Below, piece after piece: positions 1 to 16,969 of a stretch of DNA of 64,000 bases; position 1 is the first letter of the stretch; each line of letters opens with the position of its first letter. The position numbers and the translations under genes are program-made. The notes under the pieces are model-generated. The model searched no databases and was not told the origin of the DNA. It saw nothing but the letters and a program-made list of their open reading frames with translations. The stretch spans positions 1,152,001-1,216,000 of the forward strand of contig CAVQNG010000003.1 of the NCBI GenBank assembly GCA_963713825.1, given 5' to 3'. This DNA comes from an uncultured Acidobacteriota bacterium. Lineage in GTDB: Bacteria; Acidobacteriota; Thermoanaerobaculia; Multivoradales; JAHEKO01.

Positions 1-153
1 CGCAGGTCGTTCTGCCGCGACATCCAATCAGTCGAGGGTCCGCGGATGCCAGTAATCCGGCCGGGTGCGGCCGGGCAGCACAGGGAATCTCTGCCACGGG
101 CTGCCCCATGCGGTCGATTCACTTCCTGGCTTCGATCGAGTGGTGAATGAGAG

Positions 154-1095
154 CTAGCCTGGCGCCAGATCCGGGATCCGGACAACCACGGGTAGGCGAG
201 GCGGAAAGCTCCCCGCGGGGAAGCCGACCCTGAAGTCACCCTGCCGCAGTTTCTCCGCAGCCTCGCGGTACGCCCCGACAAACCACCGGTAGGCCTCCAC
301 CAGCTCTCTTCGGGCAGCCTTTGAAGCCGCATGGAAGGCCGGCGCGAGGGCCTTCTTTGACTTCAACGGTCTATGGTGAGGGTCCTGAGCCAAGACGGCA
401 CCGACACCCAGTGGCCGGGTTTCGTGCTCGGCATGTCGATCGGCGGTTTCGGTCTCGATTTGGAAGATCAGTTCAGCGATCCGACTTCGGGGCCTTTCTT
501 CCGGGAGATGCTGCCAGCAGGGCAATGGGTCGAGCCGTATCGTCTCGGGAGATGCGTAGGCGAAGTGGTCGAACTCTTCTCGCCGAGCTCGCGCAGCGTA
601 CTCCTGGGTTCGGTCAAACCACAGGCCTCTTAGGGGCAGGCCTTCGAGCAGCGCCTCAACGCAATGGGCACCTGGCCACTCTCGAGGTCGAGCGACTAGA
701 CCCTCCTTGCAGCCGTGAGACAAGAGGTACCTGAGCCTATCGACCTGAGCCGCCTCTTCTTGACTGATCACGATGGCCTGGTACCGGCGACCCCAGAACT
801 TCTCCCTCCACCCATGCAATCGACCGGCCTCTCGTGCCAGGTTCGAGTTGAGGAAATTCATGAAGCGGGCGAGTTCAGGGGCATTGTCGACACTCAGAAG
901 AAGATGGTAGTGATTCGAGAGGAAGACGAACGCATGAAGCTCGACCGGGCAGAGCCTTTGGGCTCGGGCGAGGACGCCGATGATGATGGAGTTCAACTCA
1001 TCGGAGGGCTTGAGCAGAAATCGGCCCTGCATTGTCCGACATGTCACTTCGACCAGGGCGCCGCCTTCGGGGATGTACCTCAGTCTCCTTGCCAT
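154..1095 (-). mobile_element. Y1/HUH transposase, IS200-like / REP-associated tyrosine transposase (RAYT) type
   Basis: 313-aa ORF with N-terminal 'VEVTCRT', HUH motif 'FVFLSNHYHLLL', 'FWGRRY' and catalytic-Tyr region 'LRYLLSHGCKEGLV..P.EWP'. Confidence 0.85.
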
Positions 1096-1141
1096 ACCTT
1101 AAACGTCGCAATGCCCTCCCGCGTTCTTGCAGAATCGGATG

Positions 1142-1194
1142 GCACTTCTCCATCCCTTGAGAGGTGCTCCAGACCCAGTTAGGTGGGTGGCACC
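1142..1194. repeat. Short palindromes upstream of the Y1 transposase (possible REP-like/terminal elements)
   Basis: gcacttctc..gagaggtgc hairpin at 1142-1167 and GGTG-GGTGG-CACC at 1182-1194. Confidence 0.35.
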
Positions 1195-1208
1195 GATGTC
1201 CTTCGCCT

Positions 1209-2117
1209 TCAAACCGTAAGGTGGGTGGCGAAGAACTCGATGGTCCGACTCCATGCGAGCTCCGCTGCGGCCTCGTTGTAGCGGCCCGTCGAATCGTTGT
1301 GGAACCCGTGGTTGACGCCGGGATACATGTGCATGGTGTAGGGGCTCTTGGTGGCCTTCAGATCGAGCTCATACTCGGGCCAGGTTGCGTTGACCCGTTC
1401 GTCCAGCTCCGCGAGATGAATCAGCAGGGGCGCCTTGATGTTCGGTCGGATCTCCTCGGCGGGGGGTGTGCCATAGAAGGGCACACCGGCGTTCACCAGG
1501 TCGGGCAGAGTGGCCGCCAACATGTTGGTGATATATCCGCCGAAACAGAAACCGACCACACCGAGACGGCCGTTGCAGAGGGGCTGGGCCCTGAGAAACC
1601 TGGCGGCGGCGATCATGTCCTGCTCGATCTTCATCCGATCCAGCGAGCGCTGCAGCTCCCGTCCTTCATCATCGTTTCCGGGGTAGCCGCCCACCGGGTG
1701 CAACGCATCGGGCGCAAACGCGACAAAGCCCGCTTTGGCAACCCTGCGCGCAACATCTTCGATATAGGGATTGAGGCCTCGATTCTCATGCACGACCAAT
1801 ACCGCTCCCGTCGACTCCGTCACCGCTGTCGGAACGACGAGATACCCTCGGCCCTCTCCGTGCCCATCGGGTGAAGGAAATGTCTCGTACTCAGCCCTGA
1901 TGTCGGGATCGTTGAACGAGACCTGCTCGGCCAAAGCGTAGTTCGGGATCAGCGCGGCGGCCAACCCGCTCACTGTGAATCCCAAGACGGTGAGGGTGGA
2001 CAGTCGGTCGAAGAACTCGCGCCTGGAAATCAGACCATGCGCGTACTCGTCGTACCAGTCAAACGCTTCCTGCGGGATCGGTTGTGTTGTCGGTTCGTTC
2101 TCGTTCGGCGCAGTCAC
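1209..2117 (-). CDS. Dienelactone hydrolase family protein (YghX-like)
   Basis: 'VVHENRGLNPYI', nucleophile motif 'GFCFGG', 'HGFHND', N-terminal 'YDEYAHGLISRREF'. Confidence 0.9.
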   Translation of the reverse strand: MTAPNENEPTTQPIPQEAFDWYDEYAHGLISRREFFDRLSTLTVLGFTVSGLAAALIPNYALAEQVSFNDPDIRAEYETFPSPDGHGEGRGYLVVPTAVTESTGAVLVVHENRGLNPYIEDVARRVAKAGFVAFAPDALHPVGGYPGNDDEGRELQRSLDRMKIEQDMIAAARFLRAQPLCNGRLGVVGFCFGGYITNMLAATLPDLVNAGVPFYGTPPAEEIRPNIKAPLLIHLAELDERVNATWPEYELDLKATKSPYTMHMYPGVNHGFHNDSTGRYNEAAAELAWSRTIEFFATHLTV

Positions 2118-2320
2118 AGCAACCTCCTCGGTGATCGTTCGTGGTGAAGACAGTCTGACTTCAAAACACTATGCCAGGGTCCAGTGATTTCGAATGGTCG
2201 GACCCCGGGCGTCAGGTTCCGCTGAGAAGGGCGTTGAAGATGGCCACACCGTAGTGTGACCCGCCCAAGCGTCACATCCTAGCGCTCAGACTGGACTCGT
2301 TGCAGGGGGTCAGTTCGCTC

Positions 2321-2458
2321 GGTGCCGCCGTCGCGTACGACCGGTATGAGATCGTTCTCGCCCTCACGGACAACCTGATGTTGCGTTGGCTCCGATCTCT
2401 GAAGGAAGTGGTGGCAGAGTTGGAGCCGGAGGAGAAACAGCGCGACGTTGACGCTTAG
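2321..2458 (+). pseudogene. Possible C-terminal remnant of an MgtC/SapB-family membrane protein
   Basis: Reads GAAVAYDRYEIVLALTDNLMLRWLRSLKEVV...*; resembles the last TM segment of MgtC/SapB proteins; no 5' part. Confidence 0.35.
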
Positions 2459-2487
2459 CTCTGAGCGGAATCTCTCAACCCTTGCAG

Positions 2488-3234
2488 CTACCCTTCCAAC
2501 CACCTGACCTGCCCGGTTGAAAGATCGTAGACGCCGCCGACGACCAACAACTCGCCGTTGTCGACCATCCCCGAGATGATATCGCTCTGCGCGAGAATGT
2601 CAGCGATCGTCTGGCGAACGTTCTCCTCGATGGCAAGATCAATGAACTCCTGATTCGAAGAATTTGCCTCGCCCTCGGTAGCCTCGTCGGCGCGGGCGAT
2701 GGGCGCATCGAAGTCGTTCAGCAGCTCGGTCAGATTGCCCATCTCTACGCCGTCGGCAGCACCCTTGATGGCACCGCAGGAGGTGTGTCCGAGAATGACG
2801 ACGACCTTGGACCCGGCTAGCTTGCTGGCAAATTCCAGGCTGCCGACAAGGTTGATGTCTTCGACGTTGCCGGCCACTCGGCCGACGAATACGTCGCCAA
2901 TGCCCTGGTCGAAGACGATCTCCGGCGGCACTCGCGAGTCAACGCAACCGAGGATGACTGCCTTGGGGTACTGACCACCGGCAGCCGTGGCCTCGGCCTG
3001 CGCGATGTAGTCGCGCGGCGTTAGTTTGCCTTCTACGAACCGCCGGTTGCCGGCCTTGAGGTCTGCCAGCACCTGCTCGGGGGTCAATGCCTGCTGGGCG
3101 GCGCTGTCGAGTACGCTGCTCACCAGCTCGGGCGCGGAGGAGGTGGTCTGAGCGGGCGGCTCCGATGAAGGAGCACAGCCGATGGCAAGCATGGCAATTG
3201 AAAGAACCATTACGTGCGTTGTGGAAGGTCGCAT
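2488..3234 (-). CDS. Beta-class carbonic anhydrase, predicted lipoprotein
   Basis: Zn motifs 'GCVDSRV' and 'GHTSCGA', 'RVAGN'; lipobox 'LAIGC'. Confidence 0.92.
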   Translation of the reverse strand: MRPSTTHVMVLSIAMLAIGCAPSSEPPAQTTSSAPELVSSVLDSAAQQALTPEQVLADLKAGNRRFVEGKLTPRDYIAQAEATAAGGQYPKAVILGCVDSRVPPEIVFDQGIGDVFVGRVAGNVEDINLVGSLEFASKLAGSKVVVILGHTSCGAIKGAADGVEMGNLTELLNDFDAPIARADEATEGEANSSNQEFIDLAIEENVRQTIADILAQSDIISGMVDNGELLVVGGVYDLSTGQVRWLEG

Positions 3235-3740
3235 GTCAGCTCCATTTCAAGGTTGGATGTTGAATGTTCTACCAGAGGCACAATCCACGAGCCCTATTGG
3301 CCGGGCGGGATGCACGGGAAGATGAGAAGGAGACTCCATTGCCAGCTGCGACATCAACCTTGTCGATCCGAGTGCCGGTGGCGTAGATCTCTGGGTGAAA
3401 GCGTTCAAAACGTCCACTCCGATGAAGGATAGACGCGATTGACCATCTTGTCAAGAAGGTCGGCGATTGTCGGTCAATTCGATCCGCCGATAGACGATTC
3501 TGGTGCCGTCGGGAGACCAATCGGGCGAAGGACGAATCGCGGTCTCCGAGACTCAGCCAACGGCTGTTCTCAGAGACTCGAAAGCGGTCAATTCGACGAT
3601 GAGCGGGTTTGAAAGCGGCAGCCTGAGGGCTACCAGCCGGTACCCTCGATTCGGCCCGGCCAGCGTACCGGCTTTCGTCGTCCACAACCTTGTCGAAGGC
3701 CTCGACAAGGCACGGATTCAAGGGGGGTACAATAGTCGCG

Positions 3741-3974
3741 ATGAAGAACGATGCAGGGCCAAAGGCTGTCAGCACCGCCCGTGAGACCGGCTCAGGTCTC
3801 GGAAACCCTCCAGCCCCCGGGATCGAACCGGATCTGGATGGAGCCTTTGCCGATGATGGTGTCGACCTGTCTTTGATCCGTTGGATGCTCCGACTGAGCC
3901 CCACCGAACGGCTTCAGGCTGCTCAAGACCTGATCGATGCAGCCTGGGCACTCCGGACAGATAGTGAAGCCTGA
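3741..3974 (+). CDS. Small hypothetical protein, partner of the downstream nucleotidyltransferase
   Basis: 'GVDLSLIRWMLRLSPTERL'; overlaps the next gene; TACAAT -10-like box at 3728-3733 just before the ATG. Confidence 0.65.
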   Translation: MKNDAGPKAVSTARETGSGLGNPPAPGIEPDLDGAFADDGVDLSLIRWMLRLSPTERLQAAQDLIDAAWALRTDSEA

Positions 3975-4440
3975 TTATCTGGAGCTGTTTCGAGCCCTTG
4001 GACGAGCAGGGGTGGATTACATCGTGGTCGGTGGCGTCGCCGCCATTCTGGAAGGGGCCCCTATCACCACCCTCGATCTGGACATCGTGTGTCGGCGAGA
4101 CGACGACAATCTGGGCCGCCTGACGGAGCTTCTGGATGATCTGGAAGCACGCTACCGTGACCCTGCAGGCAGAGTCATTCGCCCCACACCGGACCGGCTC
4201 GCAAGCAATAAGATCAACCTTCTCGAGACAAGCCTCGGCCCCTTGGACGTGATGCAGAGCGTCGGCCCCGACTGGGACTGGGCCGATCTGGTGAGCAGGT
4301 CTCGTATTCTCGAGGTGGGTGGCCTCGATCTGCGCGTCCTGAAGCTGGCTTCGGTCATCGAATCGAAGGAGCTGGCAGATCGGGAGAAGGACCGAGCGAT
4401 GCTGCCAGTATTGCGGCGCACTCTCGAAGAGAAGGGGTAG
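3964..4440 (+). CDS. Nucleotidyltransferase (Pol-beta superfamily, minimal NT type)
   Basis: 'YIVVGGVAA...TTLDLDIV' (GG...DxD) and C-terminal 'K..ADREKD'. Confidence 0.8.
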
Positions 4441-4517
4441 GGAGCGATCCAACAGAGCCTCTCACGCCGGTAACGCGTGTGCGAATCCCGTACGCGCTAC
4501 CAGCTCACCGCCAGCCC

Positions 4518-4691
4518 AGCCACACGCTCCGCCACAGCTTTGCCACGCACCTTCTCGAGGATGGATGCGACATTCGTACCGTTCAGGAACTCCTAGGCCA
4601 CAAGAGCGTCCGCCTCACGATGATCTACACCCACGTATTGAATCGAGGTGGGCGGGGCGTCCGCAGCCCTGCTGATCGGCTTCTGGGCTGA
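4518..4691 (+). pseudogene. intI: Integron integrase, 3' fragment only
   Basis: [50 protein letters not shown]: tyrosine-recombinase box II with the YTHV..GVRSP tail typical of IntI; N-terminal part missing; attC nearby. Confidence 0.85.
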
Positions 4692-5249
4692 ACATGTGCT
4701 CATCCTGCTCGCTGCCGTTGAGAAGCGCAGCCTATGTCTGGAACGACAAAGTATGGGTCTGCTTGATCGCTGGTGAGTACGGCGCTAATGGCTTGGCAGA
4801 GCCCGTTGGCTCTTGACGATGGTGCCGGAACCCGAGCGGCTCACTGGGTGGTAGGCTCGGAATCCGCGATTACAGGGAGTTTCAGGACTAAACAGAGTGT
4901 CTGGCAAGCGAATGTCGCACCTATCGCACGCGACGATTCCGGAGGTCGGACCAGCCCGGCGGGAGCGATTCTATAGCCCTCTCGTGCATAATGGACTGCG
5001 TTCAGTGCAGCGTAGCAACGGCTTGTCAGCCTTGGACAATGTCTCCACGGGGCCAGCCAGTGGGAGGACAGGTGATTTCGGCCGAAGGGTGGGTCACCTC
5101 ACGCTAGGCTGCGCACGAACGGAGGCTGCCGATCGACTAGGCTGCCCAGGAGCGCAGCCCAGCCTTCCTGTTGTTCGGCTAACCGAAACCGTCCAGGTGA
5201 GAGTTCCCGCCAATAGCAGACCGCCGCTAGGGTGTCGCTGGGACCCGTT

Positions 5250-5311
5250 GCCTATGCTGTTCTTGTCTGCAAGGTCCCCGAACTATTTCAGCAGTCCAAT
5301 CTAGGTTAACT
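5250..5311 (+). other. Putative attI site; crossover at G^TTAACT (5305-5311)
   Basis: GTTAACTTTCAA (5305-5316) is the exact reverse complement of TTGAAAGTTAAC (5824-5835) at the R'' end of the cassette; no attC-like palindrome seen upstream. Confidence 0.6.
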
Positions 5312-5332
5312 TTCAAAACTCATGGAGTAACG

Positions 5333-5827
5333 ATGAATACCTACCCGAGGACGTTCTCACATATTGGGATTTCCGTTCCTGATGTTGAAAAAGCAGTTGA
5401 GTTCTACAGCAAGGTGATGGGCTGGTACCAGATAATGGAACCCACTGTCATTGCCGAAGAATCAGATACCCCGATAGGCCAAATGTGTATTGATGTTTTT
5501 GGCAATGGCTGGGGCTCTTTCAAAATAGCGCATATGTCCACCGGTGACAAAATCGGCGTTGAGATGTTCGAGTTCAAAAACAATGAAAGCCCAAGAGACT
5601 TTGAGTATTGGAAAACCAGCACCTTTCATTTCTGTGTTCAGGATCCAGATGTAGAGGGCCTTGTTGCAAGAATTGTGGCGCATGGCGGAAAACAAAGAAT
5701 GCCTATACGCGAGTACTATCCTGGAGAAAAACCCTACAGGATGGTTTATGTAGAAGATCCATTCGGCCTAATATTCGAGGTTTACTCTCACAGCTATGAG
5801 CTTACTTATTCGCAAGGGGCATATTGA
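5333..5827 (+). CDS. VOC/lactoylglutathione lyase family protein (integron cassette 1)
   Basis: 'FSHIGISVPD', 'FHFCVQDPD', 'EDPFGLIFEVY'; visibly AT-richer than flanks; bounded by core site and attC. Confidence 0.9.
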   Translation: MNTYPRTFSHIGISVPDVEKAVEFYSKVMGWYQIMEPTVIAEESDTPIGQMCIDVFGNGWGSFKIAHMSTGDKIGVEMFEFKNNESPRDFEYWKTSTFHFCVQDPDVEGLVARIVAHGGKQRMPIREYYPGEKPYRMVYVEDPFGLIFEVYSHSYELTYSQGAY

Positions 5828-5828
5828 A

Positions 5829-5900
5829 AGTTAACAAGGCGCTGCTGCCGTCCACGGTTTCCGCTGCGCTCCAAACATGCCGCAGAGCGCGGCGTTAGAC
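5829..5900 (+). other. attC site (72 bp)
   Basis: R'' AGTTAAC (5829-5835), GCGCTGC..GCAGAGCGC inner boxes, R' GTTAGAC (5894-5900); directly after the VOC stop. Confidence 0.85.
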
Positions 5901-5918
5901 ACAACCGTGGGGGTACCG

Positions 5919-6428
5919 TTGGCTCGAATCAAGATACATCTCGAGACCGCGAGTGAGATCGACGGTATCCGCGAGATCAACGTCGAAGCGTTCCGTGACC
6001 ATCCGGTCAGTCGGCAGACCGAGCACTTGATCGTCGATGCATTGCGCGACAACGGCGCACTCGAAGTGTCGCTTGTGGCCGTCACCGAGGGTCGGACTGT
6101 CGGACACATTGCCTTCTCGAAGGCCGTCGTCGGCGACTCGGAATCCGATTGGTACTTGCTCGGCCCTGTCGCCGTTCAGCCCGGCGTGCAGGGTCAGGGG
6201 ATCGGTTCTGCGCTTGTGAACTTCGGGCTGGAGGAGTTGCGGACCCGACACGCGAGCGGTTGTGTCCTGGTGGGGGACCCAGGCTACTACTCTCGTTTCG
6301 GCTTCAGCACCTTCCCTGATCTGTCCTACGCAGGCGTGCCACACGAGTACGTTCTCGGGCTTCCGTTCACGGCAGCCAGCCCGTGCGGGTCGATTGTCGC
6401 GAACAAGGCCTTCGAGATCGAGCCGTAG
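5919..6428 (+). CDS. GNAT N-acetyltransferase (YhbS-like), cassette 2, attC not evident
   Basis: 'LGPVAVQPGVQGQGIGSALV', 'LVGDPGYYSRFGF'; starts just after the attC R' box (TTG start inferred). Confidence 0.85.
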   Translation: MARIKIHLETASEIDGIREINVEAFRDHPVSRQTEHLIVDALRDNGALEVSLVAVTEGRTVGHIAFSKAVVGDSESDWYLLGPVAVQPGVQGQGIGSALVNFGLEELRTRHASGCVLVGDPGYYSRFGFSTFPDLSYAGVPHEYVLGLPFTAASPCGSIVANKAFEIEP

Positions 6429-6483
6429 CCGGTGTAGCCTTAGCATAGGCAGGTAGGACGCCCTACCAAAGGAGGGAAAAGAC

Positions 6484-6936
6484 GTGTTCCACTTCGGCTA
6501 TGGATCGAATCTGAGTCTCGATTTCGTCAGAGACAACCTGATTGCGAACGCGAAGTTTGTAATGAAGGGGTACTTGCCCAACTTCGAAGTACAGTTCCCG
6601 TTCTGGTCGGAAGAACGCCAGGGTGGCTACAGCGGCATCATGGAGGCCCCCGGCGAGCTCGTTCACGGCGCACTCTACGAAGTGACGGAGCAGGAGCTCA
6701 TAGCGCTCGACAACCTGGAAGGTGTCTACAAGGACTTGTATCGACGGGAGACGTTTCTGGTGTTGGGCGAAGACGGCAAATTCCATCCGGCAGATCTATA
6801 CCGGGTGATCGATCCTCGAGGCCCCTTCCCACCTTCAAAGAGCTATGTCGAAATCATGCTCACCGGAGCGCGGGAGCTCGAGCTGGATCCTGAGTACATA
6901 GAGAAGATCGAGGGGTTCCACCGTCAAGGGCAATAG
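6484..6936 (+). CDS. Gamma-glutamylcyclotransferase (GGCT/AIG2-like) family protein
   Basis: 'FGYGSNL', 'VHGALYEV', catalytic-Glu region 'LDNLEG', 'PSKSY'; RBS ggaggg upstream. Confidence 0.85.
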   Translation: MFHFGYGSNLSLDFVRDNLIANAKFVMKGYLPNFEVQFPFWSEERQGGYSGIMEAPGELVHGALYEVTEQELIALDNLEGVYKDLYRRETFLVLGEDGKFHPADLYRVIDPRGPFPPSKSYVEIMLTGARELELDPEYIEKIEGFHRQGQ

Positions 6937-6985
6937 TGCCTGGCACTTGAGAGGCGAAAACCGGCGCACGGAGAACAGGAGTGCC

Positions 6986-8758
6986 ATGGCAGGTCTGGAT
7001 CGTTCGACGATACTCCCCGAGCCTGAGCTCCCGGACGCATCCGAGTTGCTCGCAGAGGGACGGCGCCTCGCCCAGAACTTTGCGGTGGGCCGATGCCCGT
7101 TCCTGACGACCTACGAAGTCTCCTCCGAAAGCGAGTACAAGCGGCGCCGAATGGCCGAGAGAGCGCTCATGTTCCACGCTCAGTTCGGCTTCCGCAGCTT
7201 CGAGAAGAGCCGCCGAGCCTATGCGGAGATCTCGGAGAGTGTGGCCGCGGCTGGATACCGGGTCGACCGCTACGGCATCTGCCTGGATTGGAGCATGGGA
7301 TACCCCGCTGCGCAGCGGACCGGCATGCCCCATGGCACGGGACTGATCCTGGACTCCCCCGAGGCCTTCGCGGCCTTGACCCAGGGGGCGCCAGTGGCGC
7401 CCCATTTCGGTGACTTCGTCATCGGCATGCCCGCAGCGGTGGAGAACACTGCCGCGGCCCTCGCCGCCGGGTCCACCGCCATCGGCAACCTGGGCCAGTA
7501 CTTCACCTTCAGGCTGCCCCGCTGGGACGACGACGTCGGCACGACCGCGGAGACCGTCAAGGCGCTGGCGATTTGCGCCGCACAGCCCGAGGAGGTCCTC
7601 ATCCACTCCAACCTGGACGATGGCTTCGCGGCCATGTTCACCGATCTGGCGTGCGGCATCGGCGCGGTGCTCATCGAGCGTACGATCGTGGAGGAGCTCG
7701 TGGGCGGGTGCGTCTCGCACTGCTACGGTCACACGTTCTCGGATTCCCTGTCCCGATTGGCATTCCAGAGGGCTCTGGCCCGCGTCACCGATACGCCGGG
7801 CAGCATGGTCTACGGCAACACGACCATCTTCGTAGCCGACCAGGTGGAGAACTACGCCAACCTGGCCAGCTACCTCCTGGTGGACCTCGTCGCCCAACGC
7901 ATGGAGCCGAGCGGCCACGGCCTCAACCCGGTACCGGTGACCGAGGCGCTTCGCATCCCCGAGATCGACGAGATCGTCGACGCCCACCTGTTCGCCAATC
8001 GACTGGCGCTTCGGTCCGAGGGCTTCGAGGAACTCTTTGATCTGGAGCGTGCCGACGAGATGGCAGATCGCTTGGTAGAGGGGGGGCGCCGCTTCGAGAA
8101 ACAGGTCATGGAAGGGCTCGCCGAAGCGGGTGTCGACACTGGGGATCCTTTCGAGCTCCTGCTTTCACTCCGGCGCATCGGCGCCAAGTGTCTCGAGGAG
8201 CTCTGGGGTCCGGGTGTGCCGCAAGAGGGCGTGCCCCGCGGGCGCTTACCCGTGGTGAGGGCTACCACAGTGGCGGCGCTGGAGGCCCAGGGCGAGGGTG
8301 TTGTGACGGCCCTCGATCCCGCGCAGCGAGAGGTGATTGGGTGCGCTCGCCTCACCGCGTGTGTCGCCTCCACAGACGTGCACGAGTACGGGAAGCTCCT
8401 TGTGGAAGCGGTGCTCGCGCACTTGGGCGTGACAGTGGTGGATGCCGGAGTCAGCGCTGATCCCGAGGTGGTCGCGGAGCGAACCAGTAGCGCGGATGCC
8501 AGCTTCGTTGCCGTCAGCACTTACTCCGGGATCGCGCTGAGGTACATCACAGAGCTACGTGAGGCGATGGATCGCCTCGGGTGTAACGTGCCCATCTTCG
8601 TGGGCGGCAAGCTCAACGAGGTGCCGTACGGGAGCCCGTCGAGCATGCCCGAAGACGTGACGCAGCAGCTCGACGAGCTGGGGATCGTCGTGTGTCTGCG
8701 CGTCGAGGACATGCTGGTCAGACTCGTCGAGATGGCGAAGGAGGCGACCTGTGATTGA
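6986..8758 (+). CDS. Cobalamin-dependent mutase-like protein (glutamate-mutase-epsilon-like barrel fused to a C-terminal B12-binding domain)
   Basis: C-terminal 'STDVHEYGK' (DxHxxG), 'AVSTYSG', 'IFVGGK'; 'VPVTEALRIPEIDE' recalls GlmE 'KTPHEAIGIPT'. Confidence 0.7.
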   Translation: MAGLDRSTILPEPELPDASELLAEGRRLAQNFAVGRCPFLTTYEVSSESEYKRRRMAERALMFHAQFGFRSFEKSRRAYAEISESVAAAGYRVDRYGICLDWSMGYPAAQRTGMPHGTGLILDSPEAFAALTQGAPVAPHFGDFVIGMPAAVENTAAALAAGSTAIGNLGQYFTFRLPRWDDDVGTTAETVKALAICAAQPEEVLIHSNLDDGFAAMFTDLACGIGAVLIERTIVEELVGGCVSHCYGHTFSDSLSRLAFQRALARVTDTPGSMVYGNTTIFVADQVENYANLASYLLVDLVAQRMEPSGHGLNPVPVTEALRIPEIDEIVDAHLFANRLALRSEGFEELFDLERADEMADRLVEGGRRFEKQVMEGLAEAGVDTGDPFELLLSLRRIGAKCLEELWGPGVPQEGVPRGRLPVVRATTVAALEAQGEGVVTALDPAQREVIGCARLTACVASTDVHEYGKLLVEAVLAHLGVTVVDAGVSADPEVVAERTSSADASFVAVSTYSGIALRYITELREAMDRLGCNVPIFVGGKLNEVPYGSPSSMPEDVTQQLDELGIVVCLRVEDMLVRLVEMAKEATCD

Positions 8759-9533
8759 GCGAGTGGGCGTCCTCGGTGTCGGCCATCTGGCCGGATACTT
8801 GGTGGAAGGCCTGGCGCGGGCGCGGCCGGAGCTGCAGGTCGTCCTATCTCCGAGGAACGTCGAACGCGCGGCGCAGCTCGCCGCCCAGTACGGGGCGAGC
8901 GTCGCCGCGGACAATCAGGCCGTGTGCGAAGCGGCCGACGTTGTGCTCGTGACGACGCGTCCAGGAGATGTCGCGGGGGCATGTAGGGCGCTCACCTTCC
9001 GAGCCAGCCAGACCGTGATCTCGACCGCGGCCGGCGTGCCACTCTGCGCGGTGGCATCGGTTGTCGCACCCGCAACCGCAGTGCGGGCCATGCCCCTCAC
9101 CTGCTCGGCCATTGGCCAGAGTCCAACCCTGCTGCTGCCAGATGACCCGGTGGCTCGCGAGCTCTTCGAGCTCTTGGGTACCGTACTTTCTTTGGACGAC
9201 GAAGCGCAGTTCACGCCTGCCAGTGCCATCGGGGCCTACTACGGATGGATCTACGCTCTCATGGATGAAGCCGTCGCGTGGTGTGTCAGTGCCGGTGTGC
9301 CGTCATCCACGGCCCGCGACCTGGTTCTGAAGACCACACGTGGAGCGGCGGAAATGGGGCTTCATCATCCGGACCGGGAGCTCTCCGAGATGCTGGATTC
9401 TCTGGCAACGCCCGGCGGAATCACACGCCAGGGCCTGGAGACTCTCAGACGGAGAGGCAGCCTGGATGCCTGGATCGAAGCGTTGGAAGATGTACTCCAA
9501 CGGCTACGCGGTGAAGCCCAGGGAAAGGAGTGA
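8751..9533 (+). CDS. Pyrroline-5-carboxylate reductase-like NAD(P)-dependent oxidoreductase
   Basis: Rossmann 'GVLGVGHLA', 'VRAMP', 'ATPGGIT'; overlaps the upstream gene. Confidence 0.8.
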   Translation: MIERVGVLGVGHLAGYLVEGLARARPELQVVLSPRNVERAAQLAAQYGASVAADNQAVCEAADVVLVTTRPGDVAGACRALTFRASQTVISTAAGVPLCAVASVVAPATAVRAMPLTCSAIGQSPTLLLPDDPVARELFELLGTVLSLDDEAQFTPASAIGAYYGWIYALMDEAVAWCVSAGVPSSTARDLVLKTTRGAAEMGLHHPDRELSEMLDSLATPGGITRQGLETLRRRGSLDAWIEALEDVLQRLRGEAQGKE

Positions 9534-9555
9534 GCTTCGGACTTTGTGGCGGACC

Positions 9556-9735
9556 CCGGAAATACGGTGAGAAATACGGTGACACGAAACTCATTTCCGG
9601 ACGACTGCCCACTTCCCCCCGCCTCCGTGTTGGAATCCCGTGCGGGCTATCATATAACTTCAATAGAATCAGGAACTTGCAGGGATCGAGACACCCCAAA
9701 ATGGGCGGGGGCCTCGCCGCATCCATATGGTGTCC
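9556..9735. repeat. REP/MITE-like non-coding element
   Basis: Tandem gaaatacggtga x2 (9559-9582) inside inverted repeat ccggaaat/atttccgg (9556-9600); related atatggtgtcc at 9725-9735. Confidence 0.35.
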
Positions 9736-10277
9736 ACATCCCGTAGTTGAGAACGTCTGTTCCCGCGAGCCGGGAGCGGCGAGAATCTCGCAGATACCTT
9801 CCGCCCACACGAGGTCTACCGAGCCGGGGCGATAAGGTCACCCGCGATCCCGAAGAGCGGCGAGCCAAGATCAGCTAGACGGAACAAGCCTTAGGCCGGT
9901 TGTGGTCAGAGCGCGAGAACCTCGGTGCCATCCCGAGGGCAGTGAGACGAGTTGAGACCTTCTTGCCGGCTAGAATCTTTTACGGGTAGCCGAGAGGATC
10001 AGCTGAGGAGGTGCGAAGGGCAGTTCCTGGATTTCAGGAGTGGTTCCGGCCACTTTTGAACCCACTTCCCGATGGAGAGGTCGATCGACTTTCCGATGTC
10101 TCTGCGTCAATCACGGCGGAGCTGAGCGCCCCCCGTTACTTGCCCGATTGAGGACTCTAGGGATCTGGAGTACCAGGCTGCATCGGAAGTTCCACCTGGA
10201 GCGACTGGACGTGCTCGCTCAGGATCTCGCCCATTGACCATCGCACCCAGAAGTGGCCTGCCGTTGCCTTGGTGAGC

Positions 10278-10790
10278 GGCGTTGGTGCATGAATCGGCGT
10301 TGGCCCCTGCGCTAGCATCGGCTCGGGATCCCGACCCATCATGGAGGTCGAGGGGGCTATGCCATGGCCGCACGGAAGTCGAGCCGAGTCAACCGCAAGT
10401 ACAAGACGAAGTACAGAATCCGGAACTGGAAAGAGTACGAACGCGGCCTCAGGAGCCGCGGCGATGTCACGATCTGGCTGAACGAGGAGGCGATCGCCGC
10501 TTGGACACCGCCGAAGACCGGTCTCCGCGGAAGCCAGCGACGCTACTCGAATCTCGCAATCTTGACCGCGTTGGCGCAGCGGGAAGCTGCTCTTCAGAGG
10601 ATTCGCAAGGTCGGCCGAAGAGAATGGCAGAAGGAGTCGGGATAGCGATAGCAGGCGCGCGCTGAGAACACTTTCTACCGATACAAATCAGCGCTCGGAG
10701 GCGGCCGGAGGGCGAGGAGAGGCACAGCGCAGACGAAAGAGGACAGGATCGGGTGTCACATCCTCAATCGGCTGGCCGAGCTCGGCAGAG
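10278..10790 (+). mobile_element. IS5 family (IS903 group) remnant: left IR plus internally deleted transposase
   Basis: GGCGTTGGTGCATGAATC (10278-10295) resembles the IS903 IR; 'KYRIRNWKEYERGLRSRGDVTIW' joined directly to C-terminal 'ARAENTFYRYK...ILNRLAELG' with internal stops; no right IR seen. Confidence 0.8.
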
Positions 10791-10884
10791 GTGACGGGTG
10801 CTTCTCGAGCAGAACTGCGAGGTCGCTCGAGCGAAGGCCGAATCGCGTGACGGCAAGTAGCGTCAGTTCGACTCGGTCCTTGGG

Positions 10885-12522
10885 TCAGGCCGGGAGGCCT
10901 GCTGCGCGCAGGCCATCGACCAGGTCGTCGATGAGGGGGTCGATCTTGAGCGCCCGCCGCATTAGCTCTCCGGCGCGGGCCGCGAGGTCCGGTTTCTGCT
11001 TCATGGCCGCCGCGATGTGGGGTTGTGCCTCGTCGGTGCGACCGAGCCTGCCGAGCATGGCGGCCGTCATGGCGGCGTCCCAGTAGACGAGGAACGGCTT
11101 GTGCTTTCGGGTTTCGACCAGGGCCTGCTCGTACTCGCCACGCACCATGAGGTCGATGATCTCGCCCGCCCGGAACCAGGAGGGATGACACGGGCTCGCG
11201 GCGATCGCCCGGTCGAGCAGGGCGAGCCCGCGCTCGCGCTCGCCACGCAGCACGTGCATGTACCCGATCGCTCCGACCGTGTAGGGCGAGTTGGGGTTCA
11301 GCGCGAGGGCCGTCTCGGATTCCCCGAGGAAGCTGTCGGAGTCGTCCGCCAGGTAGCTCGCGTAGGCGAGGATCAACCGGCCGAGCTGCGACCCCGGCTC
11401 GAGGAACACGCCCCTGCGGGCGAACTCGAGGGCGGTTGTCAGCGCATTCTCGGAGCCGGTGGTGTCGAAGGACCACATCTGGCAATGGAGCGTCGCCAGG
11501 GCGGACCACACGGGACCGTACTCCGGCTCGCGCTCGGAGGCCGCCCGGAGGGCGTTGAAGCAGGCCTCGATCGAGTCCGACGATGGCGCGATCTGGTGAC
11601 TGTAGTACCGCAGCATCGCCTCGTAGGTCCGAAGATCGGCCGGCGCCTTCTTCCTCGACTCGGCCGACAGTCGCCGGGAGATGATCCCGAACTCGCTGGC
11701 GACGGCTGCGGCCACGCCGTTGGCGATCTGCTCCTGGGTGGCGATGAGGTGGCTCGCCTCGAGCGGGTGCGTTGACGCGTCGGCCCAGATCTGGCGGCCG
11801 TCGGCCGTATCGGTCAGCTGGGCGGAGACCTTGACGACTTCGGCGTCGCGCCGGACCGCGCCTCGCAGGATGAAGCGCGCGCCCACACGCCGTGCCGCCT
11901 CGACAGGATCCGTCGGGAACCCGGGTGGCTGTTGAGCCATCTGGCAGGTGATGACCGCGATGTCCTGGAAGCGGGTCAGGTCGGTGGCCAGTTCCTCGGT
12001 CAGCCCGACGGTCAGGACTAGCTGCTCGGAGTCACCGGTCAGGTTTTCGAACGGCAGCACGGCCAGGGACGGCCCACTGGCCACGCCAGTATTGCCGGCC
12101 GCGGTGCTTGGTAGCCGCGAGCCCTGTTCGTCGGGTGTCTCCGATCGAAGCGAGAACCGCGGGATGTAGCGTCCTTTCGGGATGTCGATCTGGATCGGGT
12201 CGCGGACGCCGCCGACCAGGTAGTAGCGCTCGAGGGCCCGGCGGAGACGACCCGCCTGGATGCGGACGATGGGATCGTTGGCGGCATCGAAGTCCTCGCC
12301 TCGTCCGAAGACGTTCACCGCGATCGTGTAGCCCTTGAGCCGATGCGACCGGCCGGCGAGCTTCTCCTCGACGACGAAACGCAGGAAGTCGCGCATCTTG
12401 TCAGTGGCGTGGAACTCCGGGCTCGCGAGGATCCGATCGAGCTGGGCCCGGACCTCCGTGTGGGGAAGGCCGCTTCGCGAATCCACCGTCGTCTCGTGTT
12501 CCTTCGAGCCCAGACCATCCAT
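10885..12522 (-). CDS. TolB-like/TPR sensor-regulator with N-terminal putative DNA-binding domain
   Basis: 'LKGYTIAVNVFGR...DPIVRIQAGRLRRALERYY', 'PSLAVLPFENL', TPR-like helices; start at MDGLG inferred. Confidence 0.8.
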   Translation of the reverse strand: MDGLGSKEHETTVDSRSGLPHTEVRAQLDRILASPEFHATDKMRDFLRFVVEEKLAGRSHRLKGYTIAVNVFGRGEDFDAANDPIVRIQAGRLRRALERYYLVGGVRDPIQIDIPKGRYIPRFSLRSETPDEQGSRLPSTAAGNTGVASGPSLAVLPFENLTGDSEQLVLTVGLTEELATDLTRFQDIAVITCQMAQQPPGFPTDPVEAARRVGARFILRGAVRRDAEVVKVSAQLTDTADGRQIWADASTHPLEASHLIATQEQIANGVAAAVASEFGIISRRLSAESRKKAPADLRTYEAMLRYYSHQIAPSSDSIEACFNALRAASEREPEYGPVWSALATLHCQMWSFDTTGSENALTTALEFARRGVFLEPGSQLGRLILAYASYLADDSDSFLGESETALALNPNSPYTVGAIGYMHVLRGERERGLALLDRAIAASPCHPSWFRAGEIIDLMVRGEYEQALVETRKHKPFLVYWDAAMTAAMLGRLGRTDEAQPHIAAAMKQKPDLAARAGELMRRALKIDPLIDDLVDGLRAAGLPA

Positions 12523-12704
12523 GTATTTATTCTCGCTCTTCCCGCGGAAGATTGCCGGATCCCGAGACGATACCAGGATGTAGGCTACATTCCGACCTCG
12601 TAGCACCCTACCGACAAACCTCCGGCGGCTCCATACTCATCGAAGACGATCGAGCGGCGTGCAGTGAGGATGCGACGTAGGGCAATCGTCGGGATGAGAG
12701 GCTC

Positions 12705-13007
12705 ATGTTCCCCGCGCAGGACACACCGGAACTCATCGCGAGCGCCTTTCCCGGTCGCGAGGCACTCATCGACCGCGCCTACCGGGAGAGCGGCTCGTTT
12801 CGCGACCTCTGCCGAGACTACCGGAGCTGTGCTCAGGCGCTCGAGCGATGGCGTCGGATGAACGGTGACAAGCCGTTATCGCGGGCGCGGGAGTACGTCG
12901 AGCTGCTGAGCCAGCTGGGCGGAGAGATCGGAGCTTGCCTCGAGGCCATGGAGAGCGTTTCGGGCCCACGGAGGGGATTGTCGGTGACACGCACTCACGA
13001 CAGCTGA
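12705..13007 (+). CDS. Hypothetical protein
   Basis: 100-aa ORF 'FP.....I.R......FRDLCRDY', 19 bp upstream of the next gene. Confidence 0.6.
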   Translation: MFPAQDTPELIASAFPGREALIDRAYRESGSFRDLCRDYRSCAQALERWRRMNGDKPLSRAREYVELLSQLGGEIGACLEAMESVSGPRRGLSVTRTHDS

Positions 13008-13026
13008 ATCGAAAGGGAGGAGAACG

Positions 13027-14463
13027 ATGCACCACAGACCATTTTCCACAATCGCCTTCGCGGTGATGATCGGCGCGCTTCTAGCGTGCGGTCCGACCGG
13101 TCCGGCCGCGGTCGCGCCGGAGGAGGCCCAGGCCTTCGCCAGGGAGGCCTACGTCTACGGCTACCCGATGGTGATGAACTACAAGACGCTCTACAACTAC
13201 GTGATCGACACTTCAAACCCCGAGTACAAGGGGCCGTTCAACAAGGTGGCCTGCGAGGCGCGGCTGTTCACCCCGGAGGACCGGGCGGTGGTGACGCCCA
13301 ACGCCGACACCCCCTACTGCATGTTCTGGATGGATCTCCAGGCTGAACCGCTGGTGCTGACCGTACCCGAAATGGAGCCGGAAAGGTTCTACCACTTTCA
13401 GCTCATCGACTGGTATACCCACAATTTCGCTTACGTCGGGACGCTGAGCACCGGCAACGACGCCGGAACCTTCCTCATCGCCGGTCCGGGCTGGGATGGC
13501 GCGGCGCCGGAGGGCGTTGACGACGTGCTGCGCAGCGAGACGGACCTCGTGTTCATCGTCGTCCGGACCCAGCTCTTCGGCCCCGACGACCTGGCGAGGG
13601 TTGGAGAGATCCAGGCGGAGTACACACTCGAGCCGCTGAGCGGTTTCCTCGGCACGGATCCGCCGCCGGCGCCACCCATGCGCGAGTTCCCGGTGTGGGA
13701 CGAGGGCGCCCAGTTCGATGAGCGGTTCTTCGTCTTTCTCGACGTCGCCATGGACCTGTTGGGGAACCCGGCACCGGGACGGGAGGACCTTTGGGAGCGG
13801 CTGGGCCAGCTCGGACTCGGACCGGGACACGACTTCGACTTCGCGGCGCTGCCGCCCGAAATCCAGGACTCCATGAAGGCGGGCCGCGAGGCCGGGTTCG
13901 CGGACATGGAAGGGTTCATCGAGGCCTACTCGCAGGACCCGCTCACCGGCGGCCGGATCTACGGCACCCGCGAGTTCCTCGCCGACAGTGCGGCGACGAA
14001 ATACCAGCTCGAGAACGCCGACCTGCTGCGTACGGTGGCGACCCACCTCGGCCTGTACGGCAACTCGGCCGCCGAAGCTCTTTACCCCGCCTACTTCGTC
14101 GACGCCGACGGCAGCCCCCTGGACGCCTCGGCCAACCGCTACACCATGACCTTTGCCGAAGGCCAGCTGCCGCCGGCGAAGGCCTTCTGGTCGCTGACCA
14201 TGTACGACGGCCGGACCCAGCTCTTCATCGACAACCCTCTCGACCGATACCTTCTGAGCTCCTCGATGCTGGATCAGCTAAGGATGGGAGAGGACGGCTC
14301 ACTCACCCTGTACATCCAGAAGGAGTCGTCGGGAAAGAACCACGAAAGCAACTGGCTGCCGGCGCCCGACGGGCCGTTCTATCTGGTGATGCGCCTCTAC
14401 GGGCCCGAGGCGGTTGCGGTCGACGGGACCTGGACGCCGCCGCCGGTGGAACCAGCGGAGTGA
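13027..14463 (+). CDS. DUF1254/DUF1214 lipoprotein
   Basis: 'AYVYGYP', 'TPNADTPY', 'FWSLTMYD', 'NWLPAP...MRLYGP'; lipobox 'LLAC'. Confidence 0.9.
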   Translation: MHHRPFSTIAFAVMIGALLACGPTGPAAVAPEEAQAFAREAYVYGYPMVMNYKTLYNYVIDTSNPEYKGPFNKVACEARLFTPEDRAVVTPNADTPYCMFWMDLQAEPLVLTVPEMEPERFYHFQLIDWYTHNFAYVGTLSTGNDAGTFLIAGPGWDGAAPEGVDDVLRSETDLVFIVVRTQLFGPDDLARVGEIQAEYTLEPLSGFLGTDPPPAPPMREFPVWDEGAQFDERFFVFLDVAMDLLGNPAPGREDLWERLGQLGLGPGHDFDFAALPPEIQDSMKAGREAGFADMEGFIEAYSQDPLTGGRIYGTREFLADSAATKYQLENADLLRTVATHLGLYGNSAAEALYPAYFVDADGSPLDASANRYTMTFAEGQLPPAKAFWSLTMYDGRTQLFIDNPLDRYLLSSSMLDQLRMGEDGSLTLYIQKESSGKNHESNWLPAPDGPFYLVMRLYGPEAVAVDGTWTPPPVEPAE

Positions 14464-14506
14464 TCCCCCGACCGGGGTCTTTGATGAGCAAGAGAAGAGG
14501 AGAACC

Positions 14507-15451
14507 ATGATGATTTCCACGGCATCCACATCGCACTGGAAGAGCATTCTTGTTGTGTCTGTCGGTCTGTCACTGGCAGCGGTTTCGGCCTGTGCTCGAA
14601 GCGATACGGACACCACCGCAAAGGCCCAACCACAGCCGGTACCCGTCGAGGAAGCGATCCCTGGTGAGAGCCTCGGGATCGCGTCCGTGGTGAACCTTCG
14701 CGACCTGGGCGGCTACACCACGAGCGATGGCGCGACTGTGGCCAGGGGGCTCATCTATCGCTCCAATCAGCTCAGCGAGATCCCCGAGGTTGACATGGAG
14801 AAGCTCGCCACCCTCGGGCTCGAGGTCGATTACGACCTGCGTACCGCTGCCGAGCGCGACGCCCGCCCGGACGAGCTGCCGCCGGGAGTCGAGTACGTGG
14901 TGGTCGACGTGCTGGCCGACTCGCCACAAGCGGGTCCGGCAATGCTGGAGAACTTGATGCAGGATCCCCAGGCGGCCAACGCGGAGCTCGGCGGAGGCAA
15001 GGTGGAAGAGGAATTCCGGGAGTCCTACCGCGGGTTCGTCTCGCTCCCGAGCGCAAAGACCGAGTTCAGCAAGATGTTCCACGGTCTGGCCGATGAAGAG
15101 AAACTCCCGGCGCTCTTCCACTGCACCACCGGCAAGGACCGGACCGGATGGGCCGCCGCGGCCCTCCTGACCCTGCTCGGCGTGCCGGAAGATCAGGTCT
15201 ACCAAGACTACCTGCGGAGCAACGACAACATCCTGCCGGCCTACAAGCACGTGATCGACCCGTTCGTCGAAGCGGGCGGTGACCCGGAGATCACGGCGGC
15301 GATCCTGGGCGTGAAGCGGGAGTACCTCGAGGCCTCGTTCGACGAGATGGAAACGAACTACGGCACCATCGAAAACTACTTCGCCGAAGCTCTGGGCATC
15401 GACGCCGCGGGGCAACAGGTCATCCGCGATCTTTATCGTCAAACCCATTGA
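14507..15451 (+). CDS. Protein-tyrosine phosphatase family (PtpB/IphP-like), predicted lipoprotein
   Basis: P-loop 'FHCTTGKDRTG', 'NLRDLGGY', 'DYLRSN'; 'AVSAC' lipobox. Confidence 0.88.
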   Translation: MMISTASTSHWKSILVVSVGLSLAAVSACARSDTDTTAKAQPQPVPVEEAIPGESLGIASVVNLRDLGGYTTSDGATVARGLIYRSNQLSEIPEVDMEKLATLGLEVDYDLRTAAERDARPDELPPGVEYVVVDVLADSPQAGPAMLENLMQDPQAANAELGGGKVEEEFRESYRGFVSLPSAKTEFSKMFHGLADEEKLPALFHCTTGKDRTGWAAAALLTLLGVPEDQVYQDYLRSNDNILPAYKHVIDPFVEAGGDPEITAAILGVKREYLEASFDEMETNYGTIENYFAEALGIDAAGQQVIRDLYRQTH

Positions 15452-15558
15452 ACTCGGTCTCAATTGTCGGAGGTAGGCCCATGAATCAACGAATCGATCG
15501 ACAAACCATTCCTGGCGCACTGCTCGCAACGGCGGCTTCGGACCGGAAGGAACCCTCG

Positions 15559-16749
15559 ATGAGCCGGATTGGGTTGGTCGTCGTGGCGCTGTTGATCTCC
15601 TCGGCAAGCGTCTGCCTTCATGCCGAGGAGTGGGCGCCCTTCGAGGGCGCCGAGCAACTGCGCGACCTCGTCGCCGGCGCGACGGCAGAGATCGAGATGA
15701 AACCCGGTCACGTTGCGGTGGGCCAGTACCGTGCGGACGGGACCGCGACGATCACCGCCTGGGGCGAAACCTATGAGCGCACGTGGGAGGTCGTCGGCGA
15801 CGAGCGGGTGTGCTACTCCTCGCTCACCGAGACCAACTGTTACACCTTTGAAACCAGCGTCGACGTGCCGGGTGAGTACCGCGCGCAGCACGTCGAGACC
15901 GGAGAGATCAGGATCTTCCGCGTCACAGAAGCGGACTCGGAAGTGATCACCGCAGACACCGCGCCGGGAGGGGAGGGCGGTCTCGGTGCGCCGTCCGCGT
16001 CGGAGGTTGCTGCGGCGCTTTCCAACCCCAACACGACCATGGGCACGATGAACACCCTCTTCGATTTCGTCGCCTATGACGGCGACCTGCCGGACGCCGG
16101 CTCGCAAAGTGTGTTCCGGGCGACCTTCCAGCCGTCGCTACCCTACCCTTTGTCCGACACCACCAACCTGTTCGTGCGACCGCTGATCCCGATCATCTTC
16201 AGCCAGGATGTGCCGACCGCGGACGGTTTTGAGTCGGTGGGTGTCGACCTCGGCGACATCGGGTTCGACGTCTTCCTCGCCAAGAACCTCGCAGGCGGCT
16301 TCGTCGTCGGCGGCGGTGTGGTCGGAACCCTACCGACCGCGACCGACGACGCCCTCGGCCTCGACCAGTGGCTGCTGGGGCCCGAGGTGCTGGTGGCCAA
16401 GGTCCCCAAGTGGGGTGTGCTCGGTCTGCTGTTGACCCACCAGTGGGACGTCGCCGGCGGTGACGGCGATGGCACCAGCATCACCGGCGGCCAGTACTTC
16501 TACACCATCAACCTGAAGGATGGGTGGCAGATCAACGGCGCGCCGGTGTACTCCTACAACCACAACGCCTCGAGCGGCAACGCGTGGACCTTTCCGATCG
16601 CCGTCGGCGCCGCCAAGACGACCATGATCGGCGGCCGGCCGTGGAAGTTCAACCTCCAGTACTGGCACTATGTCGTCTCTCCAGACACCTTCGGGCCGGG
16701 GAACCAGATCAGGATGGGCATCTCGCCGGTGGTCGAGCTCCCATGGTGA
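15559..16749 (+). CDS. Exported protein with C-terminal putative outer-membrane beta-barrel
   Basis: Signal peptide, 'LSNP', 'FQPSLP', 'LGDI', 'LPTATDD.LG' and amphipathic aromatic-rich strands. Confidence 0.6.
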   Translation: MSRIGLVVVALLISSASVCLHAEEWAPFEGAEQLRDLVAGATAEIEMKPGHVAVGQYRADGTATITAWGETYERTWEVVGDERVCYSSLTETNCYTFETSVDVPGEYRAQHVETGEIRIFRVTEADSEVITADTAPGGEGGLGAPSASEVAAALSNPNTTMGTMNTLFDFVAYDGDLPDAGSQSVFRATFQPSLPYPLSDTTNLFVRPLIPIIFSQDVPTADGFESVGVDLGDIGFDVFLAKNLAGGFVVGGGVVGTLPTATDDALGLDQWLLGPEVLVAKVPKWGVLGLLLTHQWDVAGGDGDGTSITGGQYFYTINLKDGWQINGAPVYSYNHNASSGNAWTFPIAVGAAKTTMIGGRPWKFNLQYWHYVVSPDTFGPGNQIRMGISPVVELPW

Positions 16750-16969
16750 CCGGAACCGTCGACGGAGAGTGGATGACTCGATTTGAGAGCTGCCGATCCG
16801 CAGCGTGGCGGCTGGCGCTTCCGTTTGCAAGCGAACTTCGTGCTGCCGAAGTAGCGACCGGTGTCACGGGTATGAGTCCGCTGAAGGGAACCCTTGCGGG
16901 TCCGTTCTTCGCTTTGATGATGAATGAGATTGGCGTTGAGAAACGCAACTAGTGGATGAGGAGGAAGAG

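Follow-up and report, generated by a model that had tools for sequence, protein, structure and literature searches.

Glutamate mutase consists of two chains, GlmE and GlmS (PDB 1CB7, 6H9E; PF06368 and PF02310); comparable mutases are the methylmalonyl-CoA mutase alpha chain (PDB 4REQ, 2XIQ) and the lysine and ornithine aminomutases KamDE and OraSE (PDB 8T0V, 1XRS, 3KP0). The 2-methyleneglutarate mutase of Eubacterium barkeri is a single-chain adenosylcobalamin (AdoCbl) carbon-skeleton mutase of about 600 amino acids (aa) with a C-terminal cobalamin (B12) domain. In the window analysed here, a stretch of 64,000 nucleotides (nt) from an uncultured Acidobacteriota bacterium (assembly GCA_963713825.1, contig CAVQNG010000003.1, positions 1,152,001 to 1,216,000 of the forward strand), a gene for a single-chain B12 enzyme of 590 aa is followed by a gene for a ProC-like imine reductase and preceded by a GGCT-like gene. 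We consider it an even call that the first two form a module in which the B12 enzyme, by AdoCbl radical chemistry, would make a cyclic imino acid out of an amino acid, and its ProC-like partner would reduce the imine. The domain architecture and fold, the B12 motif, the pairing of the genes and the family distribution, from which this reading starts, are results of the analysis.

The locus differs from each of the described systems. Unlike glutamate mutase, the window enzyme is one chain, with the B12 domain fused; in structural alignment it shares about 8% identity with GlmE, and there is no Pfam, HMM or profile-profile signal between them. Its partner is an imine reductase, and the window genome (96% complete) has no match anywhere to PF13941 (GlmL/MutL) or PF07476 (methylaspartate ammonia-lyase). 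Compared with KamDE and OraSE, it lacks the lysine 11 residues past the cobalt histidine as well as PF09043 and PF16554, and no OraS-like small subunit gene was seen. The methylmalonyl-CoA mutase alpha chain gave a Z score below that of GlmE and is about 140 residues longer than the window protein, for which no acyl-CoA mutase family match was obtained; enoyl-CoA hydratase neighbours were found in only two (L049 and L058) of the 80 related loci that we compared, which are the 80 kept out of 312 matching stretches in a one-genome-per-species collection. The nicotinate-fermentation context of 2-methyleneglutarate mutase is absent at the window module. Finally, according to PMC7077986, the gene of the glycyl-radical trans-4-hydroxy-L-proline dehydratase HypD likewise stands beside one for a 1-pyrroline-5-carboxylate (P5C) reductase, which reduces the product imine; unlike HypD, the window enzyme has an unrelated fold and cofactor, and no activating enzyme.

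Fold and cofactor domain of the B12 enzyme

When the 590-aa protein was searched against Pfam, the sole match was the B12-binding domain near the C-terminus (PF02310, E 3.4e-11, 43.5 bits as compared to a cut-off of 32.1), and the NCBIfam and PDB sequence searches also returned this domain only, with all matches below the family cut-offs. The PF02310 score above the gathering value, the DxHxxG motif and a later GG together indicate a base-off/His-on domain, and residues D464 to K470 are invariant in 27/27 homologues. An AlphaFold2 model built on these 27 homologues was confident (pLDDT 88.4, pTM 0.91). In it, a beta/alpha barrel of eight strands spans about aa 63-325, a helical stretch covers 327-454, and residues 457-589 form a Rossmann-like domain. 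Foldseek placed methylmalonyl-CoA mutase at the top (4.2e-12) and, after it, ornithine aminomutase, glutamate mutase and lysine aminomutase. The best match in structural alignment was GlmE, which covered model residues 14-472. This alignment takes in the helices between the barrel and the B12 domain, and the model shows the GlmE barrel fold with its C-terminal helical extension.

In sequence searches, the best scores of the B12 domain were those with MetH and corrinoid proteins (TIGR02082 6.9e-08; 1bmt 2.2e-4), and some MetH alignments reach back to aa 347. These matches speak for a corrinoid methyltransferase, in which a methyl-transfer barrel would act on methylcobalamin held by the B12 domain and the ProC-like gene would be unrelated or supply reductant. 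The coverage of the barrel-to-B12 helices by GlmE argues against this explanation, as does a sister subfamily joined to a MutL-type reactivase (described below); it appears disfavoured by the tests made, and we consider it very improbable.

Conserved positions of the barrel were read from an alignment of 40 sequences (A3). At the C-terminal ends of the strands, the invariant residues are H64/Q66, D101, H140/D143, N168/Q171, H207/N209/D211/D212, C246, Y276/N278/T279 and N314/E320. As regards an arginine claw such as that of GlmE, what the alignment shows is six invariant arginines (R70, R95, R111, R257, R323 and R397). After strand 8, an invariant E-A-x-x-I-P is common to the family and to GlmE; in GlmE sequences (alignment A4) an invariant H-E-A-x-G-I-P stands at the place matching VTEALRIP, in both cases as compared by eye only.

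This short motif and the best structural match are the points in favour of a genuine, fused glutamate mutase interconverting glutamate and 3-methylaspartate. Sequence comparisons speak against it. PF06368 was found in 0/40 members, and neither PF06368 nor TIGR01503 matched the window protein; at E<=10, no relevant Pfam family fell on the barrel in 40/40 members. Searches of the barrel against PDB chains, with phmmer and with the 40-sequence profile, gave B12-domain matches or noise only, and hhalign against an alignment of five GlmE sequences of the same phylum gave a probability of 0.4%. Weak PF06368 matches in four other genomes of the phylum (L090-L093) were inspected and rejected as family members, and tblastn gave no match there. 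The two enzymes expected alongside glutamate mutase, methylaspartate ammonia-lyase and GlmL, were not found in the genome, as mentioned above, and the conserved partner, an imine reductase, has no role in the methylaspartate pathway. A true glutamate mutase is therefore disfavoured, and we give it very little credence. As far as the model goes, the mutase likeness of the barrel appears to be one of fold only.

A PLP (pyridoxal phosphate)-dependent aminomutase akin to lysine 5,6- or ornithine 4,5-aminomutase, whose diamino-acid product would be oxidised or cyclised with a ProC-like dehydrogenase, was considered as well. The nearest named ESM-Atlas clusters are Lys-AminoMut_A, with scores of 0.83-0.86, which we take as a lead only, and some neighbours, those that are GGCT-like, ArgE-like and agmatinase-like, would set free the amines of basic amino acids. 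According to PMC3958899, however, the PLP lysine of both aminomutases lies 11 residues past the cobalt histidine (His133/Lys144 and His618/Lys629), and position 477, which corresponds to it in the window family if the helix following DxHxxG has no indel, carries L, F, I or M in 27/27 homologues. Just two lysines of the B12 domain are conserved, K470, which is common to MetH, and K542, and neither PF09043 (Lys-AminoMut_A) nor PF16554 (OAM_dimer) was matched. A classical PLP aminomutase is thus disfavoured by these tests, and appears quite improbable.

An earlier note on this DNA, made from the letters alone, had described a C-terminal DxHxxG domain and the string VTEALRIP in the N-terminal region, and had guessed at an N-terminal barrel of the mutase type; the first two were found in the protein, and the guess is borne out by the AlphaFold2 model and its Foldseek matches. 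The same note spoke of a glutamate-mutase-like single chain. This description stands as regards the fusion of barrel and B12 domain and the structural match to GlmE, and fails at the level of Pfam and profile comparison.

Pairing of the B12 gene with a ProC-like reductase

Gene calls at the locus, together with the positions of the main motifs, are collected in Table 1. The B12 gene ends in ...TGT GAT TGA and the GTG of the ProC-like gene lies inside it, giving an overlap of 8 nt, an arrangement that, to judge from the nucleotides, is typical of translational coupling. Shine-Dalgarno-like sequences precede the starts of the GGCT-like and B12 genes, and GAAGGAGG lies just upstream of the ProC-like GTG at 8751. 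The longest frame of the B12 gene opens at TTG 6947, as compared to ATG 6986 for the 590-aa protein. Since many homologues were found for all three products, these are real genes and not chance open reading frames (ORFs).

Table 1. Genes and motifs of the locus (positions in the window)
Feature	Position	Strand	Remarks
GGCT-like gene (GGCT/GGACT-like gamma-glutamyl cyclotransferase, 150 aa)	6484..6936	+	GTG start, AGGAGG upstream
B12 enzyme, one chain of 590 aa: TIM barrel at the N-terminus, then a helical linker, then the Rossmann domain that binds B12	6986..8758	+	ATG start
Barrel core, aa ~63-325, eight strands	7172..7960	+	predicted secondary structure and alignment A3
VTEALRIP motif after strand 8, aa 318-325 (E320, I324, P325 invariant)	7937..7960	+	
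DVHEYG = DxHxxG cobalt-ligand motif (H466), aa 464-469	8375..8392	+	
ProC-like NAD(P)H imine reductase, 260 aa	8751..9533	+	GTG start, PF03807 and PF14748

The neighbourhood of the B12 gene was examined with our own ORF calls on the 80 loci, 74 of which were testable, having at least 700 nt downstream; a gene was counted as adjacent when no more than 400 nt separated its start from the end of the B12 gene. A ProC-like gene was directly downstream in 51/74 testable loci (50 by script, and L030, where the frame is over-extended, by eye), which span six or more phyla, and within 6 kb in four more (L009, L047, L052 and L053). In ten loci without a ProC-like gene, the downstream genes are mutually unrelated. 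Three genomes carry the ProC-like gene elsewhere (G327, G331 and G339), and in a fourth (G314, locus L012) a ProC-like match lies just beyond the locus, if contig C5 is that of L012. A functional tie between the B12 enzyme and the ProC-like reductase is supported by this pairing.

The ProC-like protein matches PF03807 (4.4e-14) and PF14748 (1.1e-15), both above the Pfam cut-offs. Its best PDB match is a P5C reductase (P5CR), 2ahr (8.6e-19), in which SPGGTT aligns with its TPGGIT loop. With its scores against the curated P5CR models too low (see below), it is a P5CR-family paralogue and not a certified ProC. In the window genome (G000) it is the sole P5CR homologue, and no proA was found above cut-off. 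We tried and dropped, as a general explanation, the idea that the gene serves as the housekeeping ProC: a genome of the same genus (G124, 100% complete) has neither the module nor any proC homologue, and 31/41 other carriers tested (27/36 and 4/5) possess a canonical proC as well. The gene is a dedicated paralogue and not generally a housekeeping enzyme. Two ornithine cyclodeaminase-family genes were also observed in G000, and canonical proC is present in neither G000 nor G124; this genus may make its proline from ornithine.

The three co-oriented genes with the last two overlapping, the GGCT and ProC-like identities (PF06094/PF13772 and PF03807/PF14748, above the Pfam cut-offs) and the lack of a methylaspartate ammonia-lyase or GlmL neighbour (neither family occurs in the ten neighbouring window ORFs scanned) are as the earlier note had put them. 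By the note's own test, conserved neighbourhood in other genomes, the three genes do not pass as a set, whereas the last two do. A GGCT-like gene was found in 5/80 loci, and the conserved unit is the pair of B12 and ProC-like genes, not the trio.

Distribution of the family and accessory genes

A word-index search returned full-length relatives of the window protein with 62-96% identity, under generic names such as 'cobalamin-dependent protein' and 'methylmalonyl-CoA mutase cobalamin-binding subunit'. The 80 loci kept come from Acidobacteriota, Gemmatimonadota, Chloroflexota, Asgard archaea, Alpha- and Gammaproteobacteria and Bacteroidota, with identity of 50-85% across at least six phyla, Asgard archaea included; the cultured carriers among them are Tistlia consotensis and Pacificispira spongiicola. 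When a barrel-only profile was searched against 1.84 billion representatives (clusters at 50% identity), 516 proteins matched at E<=1e-3 and 166 at E<=1e-30. In the window's own phylum the family is present in 2/301 genomes, the window genome included, and it was not found in the searched genomes of the same genus, family and order. Such a rare and patchy presence suggests an accessory, horizontally moving module.

Two distant members carry additional domains. P0175 (857 aa; 31% identity over 569 aa) belongs to a distant subfamily and continues into a GlmL/MutL-type domain (PF13941, E 3.1e-44), and P0243 has an N-terminal ASKHA domain of the hydantoinase/oxoprolinase type. GlmL is a reactivase-type protein associated with glutamate mutase, and the join seen in P0175 supports AdoCbl radical chemistry. 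The window genome also encodes a PduO-type adenosyltransferase (208.6 bits).

Several proteins of 426-472 aa (P0126, P0145, P0155, P0164 and P0172) consist of the barrel alone and lack a B12 domain; they may be split forms or fragments. In one locus (L040:4253-8591) two B12 enzyme paralogues stand in tandem. The second (an ORF of 638 aa) is 58% identical to the window protein and has altered barrel motifs that are otherwise invariant, HSNLCDG for HSNLDDG, HCFGQ for HCYGH and CFDFNM for CLDWSM, which suggests a second specificity or a heteromer.

No paper on this B12 enzyme family was found in a full-text search of papers outside subscription journals. A widespread, unstudied family usually found beside a proline-type imine reductase probably carries out a B12 reaction not yet described, within the known class of B12 radical isomerases.

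The GGCT-like protein matches the GGACT/AIG2 families PF13772 (2.1e-12) and PF06094 (2.8e-11), and its best PDB match is human GGCT (4.7e-10). It contains the YGSNL motif, and the glutamate of its LDNLEGV, which we take to be catalytic, aligns with that of LDEQEGV in the human enzyme. The gene is adjacent and co-oriented in L001, L022 and L072, adjacent in the opposite orientation in L004, and 3 kb off in L027; it is thus an accessory gene of at least three lineages, in a minority of loci.

Other neighbours recur in smaller sets of loci. In 11 loci the neighbours include an Fe/2OG hydroxylase of the PhyH type whose HxD...H triad is intact, and PDB searches with these proteins returned generic dioxygenase matches only. 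SDR neighbours occur in 14 loci, proline-racemase family members in five, MR/MLE in six and the arginase/agmatinase family in six, the last confirmed on L023 only. The richest context is the co-oriented cluster of L021 (331-9708), which comprises genes for an HpaB-like monooxygenase, an agmatinase-like protein, RidA, PhyH, an ArgE-like deacylase, the B12 enzyme, the ProC-like protein, an SDR and a second RidA. L023 (337-8969) has the same ORF layout; its agmatinase-like gene was scanned, and the annotation of the cluster comes mainly from L021. This context points to arginine- or ornithine-type substrates. Judging by their families, the recurrent accessory genes would free an amine (GGCT-like, ArgE-like, agmatinase-like) or add a hydroxyl (PhyH), and RidA, proline-racemase family, MR/MLE and OCD neighbours would handle imines or proline-type rings.

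Around the module in the window, the glyoxalase-fold and GNAT genes that lie upstream have counterparts in 0/80 loci. A beta-carbonic anhydrase gene (PF00484) was observed a few kb from the module both in the window (2488-3234, minus strand) and in the closest related locus (L001:8744-9562, minus strand), on different sides of the module. An IS200/Y1-transposase-like ORF (PF01797, E 5.3e-06) occupies 154-1095 on the minus strand, 5 kb upstream of the module, and between 5001 and 6000 the GC content falls to 0.516; both are in keeping with an accessory region. The ProC-like gene is followed by about 1.3 kb (9534-10884) without a convincing ORF or Rfam match, where a 101-aa frame (9530-9835) appears non-coding; a search of 1-16000 gave no riboswitch and no match to any other Rfam family. 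Further downstream are a DUF1254/DUF1214 protein (13027-14463, plus strand) and long ORFs at 16952-18460 and 18676-19677.

Proposed reaction and its meaning

In the two-gene module that we propose, the TIM barrel, of the GlmE/aminomutase type, would hold the substrate, and the fused C-terminal domain would bind B12 base-off/His-on via H466. We infer AdoCbl rather than methylcobalamin as the cofactor: homolysis of its Co-C bond would give the 5'-deoxyadenosyl radical, and this would abstract hydrogen from the substrate, an amino acid. The product of the ensuing 1,2-rearrangement or elimination would be, either as formed or after ring closure, a cyclic imino acid related to 1-pyrroline or 1-piperideine carboxylate. 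Using NAD(P)H, the ProC-like enzyme would reduce this putative imine to an amino acid of the proline type, which also sets the presumed direction of flux, and in some lineages the GGCT-like accessory protein would probably release the amine substrate from a gamma-glutamyl conjugate.

As to the substrate, a candidate that we put forward with low confidence is that the base-off/His-on AdoCbl enzyme takes an amino acid with a beta-hydroxy-amine group (4-hydroxyproline, 5-hydroxylysine or 4-hydroxyornithine), or else a basic amino acid, straight to P5C or its six-membered homologue P6C (1-piperideine-6-carboxylate). Equally open is a true mutase with a basic or an acidic amino acid as its substrate. 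The products put forward in the earlier note (proline, methylproline or pipecolate-like) are likewise putative.

One well-defined form of such a reaction would be a B12 counterpart of HypD, in which hydrogen abstraction at C5 of trans-4-hydroxy-L-proline and elimination of the neighbouring OH would give P5C, reduced to proline by the ProC-like enzyme. With 5-hydroxylysine or 4-hydroxyornithine as variant substrates, the hydrogen would come from the aminomethyl carbon and P5C or P6C would yield proline or pipecolate. All of these would be specific cases of the module proposed above. PMC7077986 notes that, for several of the reactions of glycyl-radical eliminases, a counterpart dependent on AdoCbl exists. 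A two-gene module that is self-contained and has varied neighbours also suits a short salvage route between common metabolites, and genes of the proline-racemase/hydroxyproline-epimerase, MR/MLE and prolyl-oligopeptidase families and PhyH hydroxylases recur nearby. On the other hand, the B12 eliminases of which we know bind the cofactor base-on and have no DxHxxG. If the substrate of PhyH were proline, a PhyH-B12-ProC operon would be a futile cycle, and no tested feature ties the family specifically to hydroxyproline. Moreover, the known base-off/His-on AdoCbl enzymes, as given in PMC3958899, are mutases and aminomutases. Our confidence in a HypD-like elimination is low.

Several observations weigh against the proposed module as a whole. 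No characterised enzyme is linked to the barrel by sequence, and the cofactor form and the chemistry therefore rest on fold and context. The link to MutL is known from a single distant protein, P0175, whose C-terminus looks garbled and which possibly represents two adjacent genes joined by a frameshift. As regards the partner, no ProC-like gene lies within 6 kb in 19/74 testable loci. In two carriers, G325 (L029) and G328 (L074), the other P5CR homologue is canonical proC only, and G322 (L020) has no P5CR homologue at all. The window's ProC-like protein scores under the curated cut-off of every P5CR model (PRK06476, 153.9 bits as compared to 254; TIGR00112, 124 as compared to 196.75), so that it may act on a substrate other than P5C. 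A Pfam count of the two nearest genes per side (134 genes upstream and, with the three longest left out, 138/141 downstream) showed very varied genes and no universal third partner, and no substrate is singled out.

If the candidate conversion to P5C or P6C is true, the module would provide an oxygen-independent B12 route to proline or pipecolate in bacteria and Asgard archaea. In its HypD-like form, the enzyme would have no forerunner as an AdoCbl counterpart of the glycyl-radical hydroxyproline dehydratase, and among eliminases it would be the first to carry a DxHxxG domain. To our knowledge, very few AdoCbl-dependent isomerase and eliminase reactions are known and new ones are rarely added. 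The family is well conserved and clearly intact, with a barrel outside every curated model, and its pairing with an imine reductase offers a direct assay handle, through NAD(P)H consumption in a coupled reaction. Discovery of the substrate would add a B12 reaction and better annotation of the genes now named 'methylmalonyl-CoA mutase cobalamin-binding subunit' or 'cobalamin-dependent protein'.

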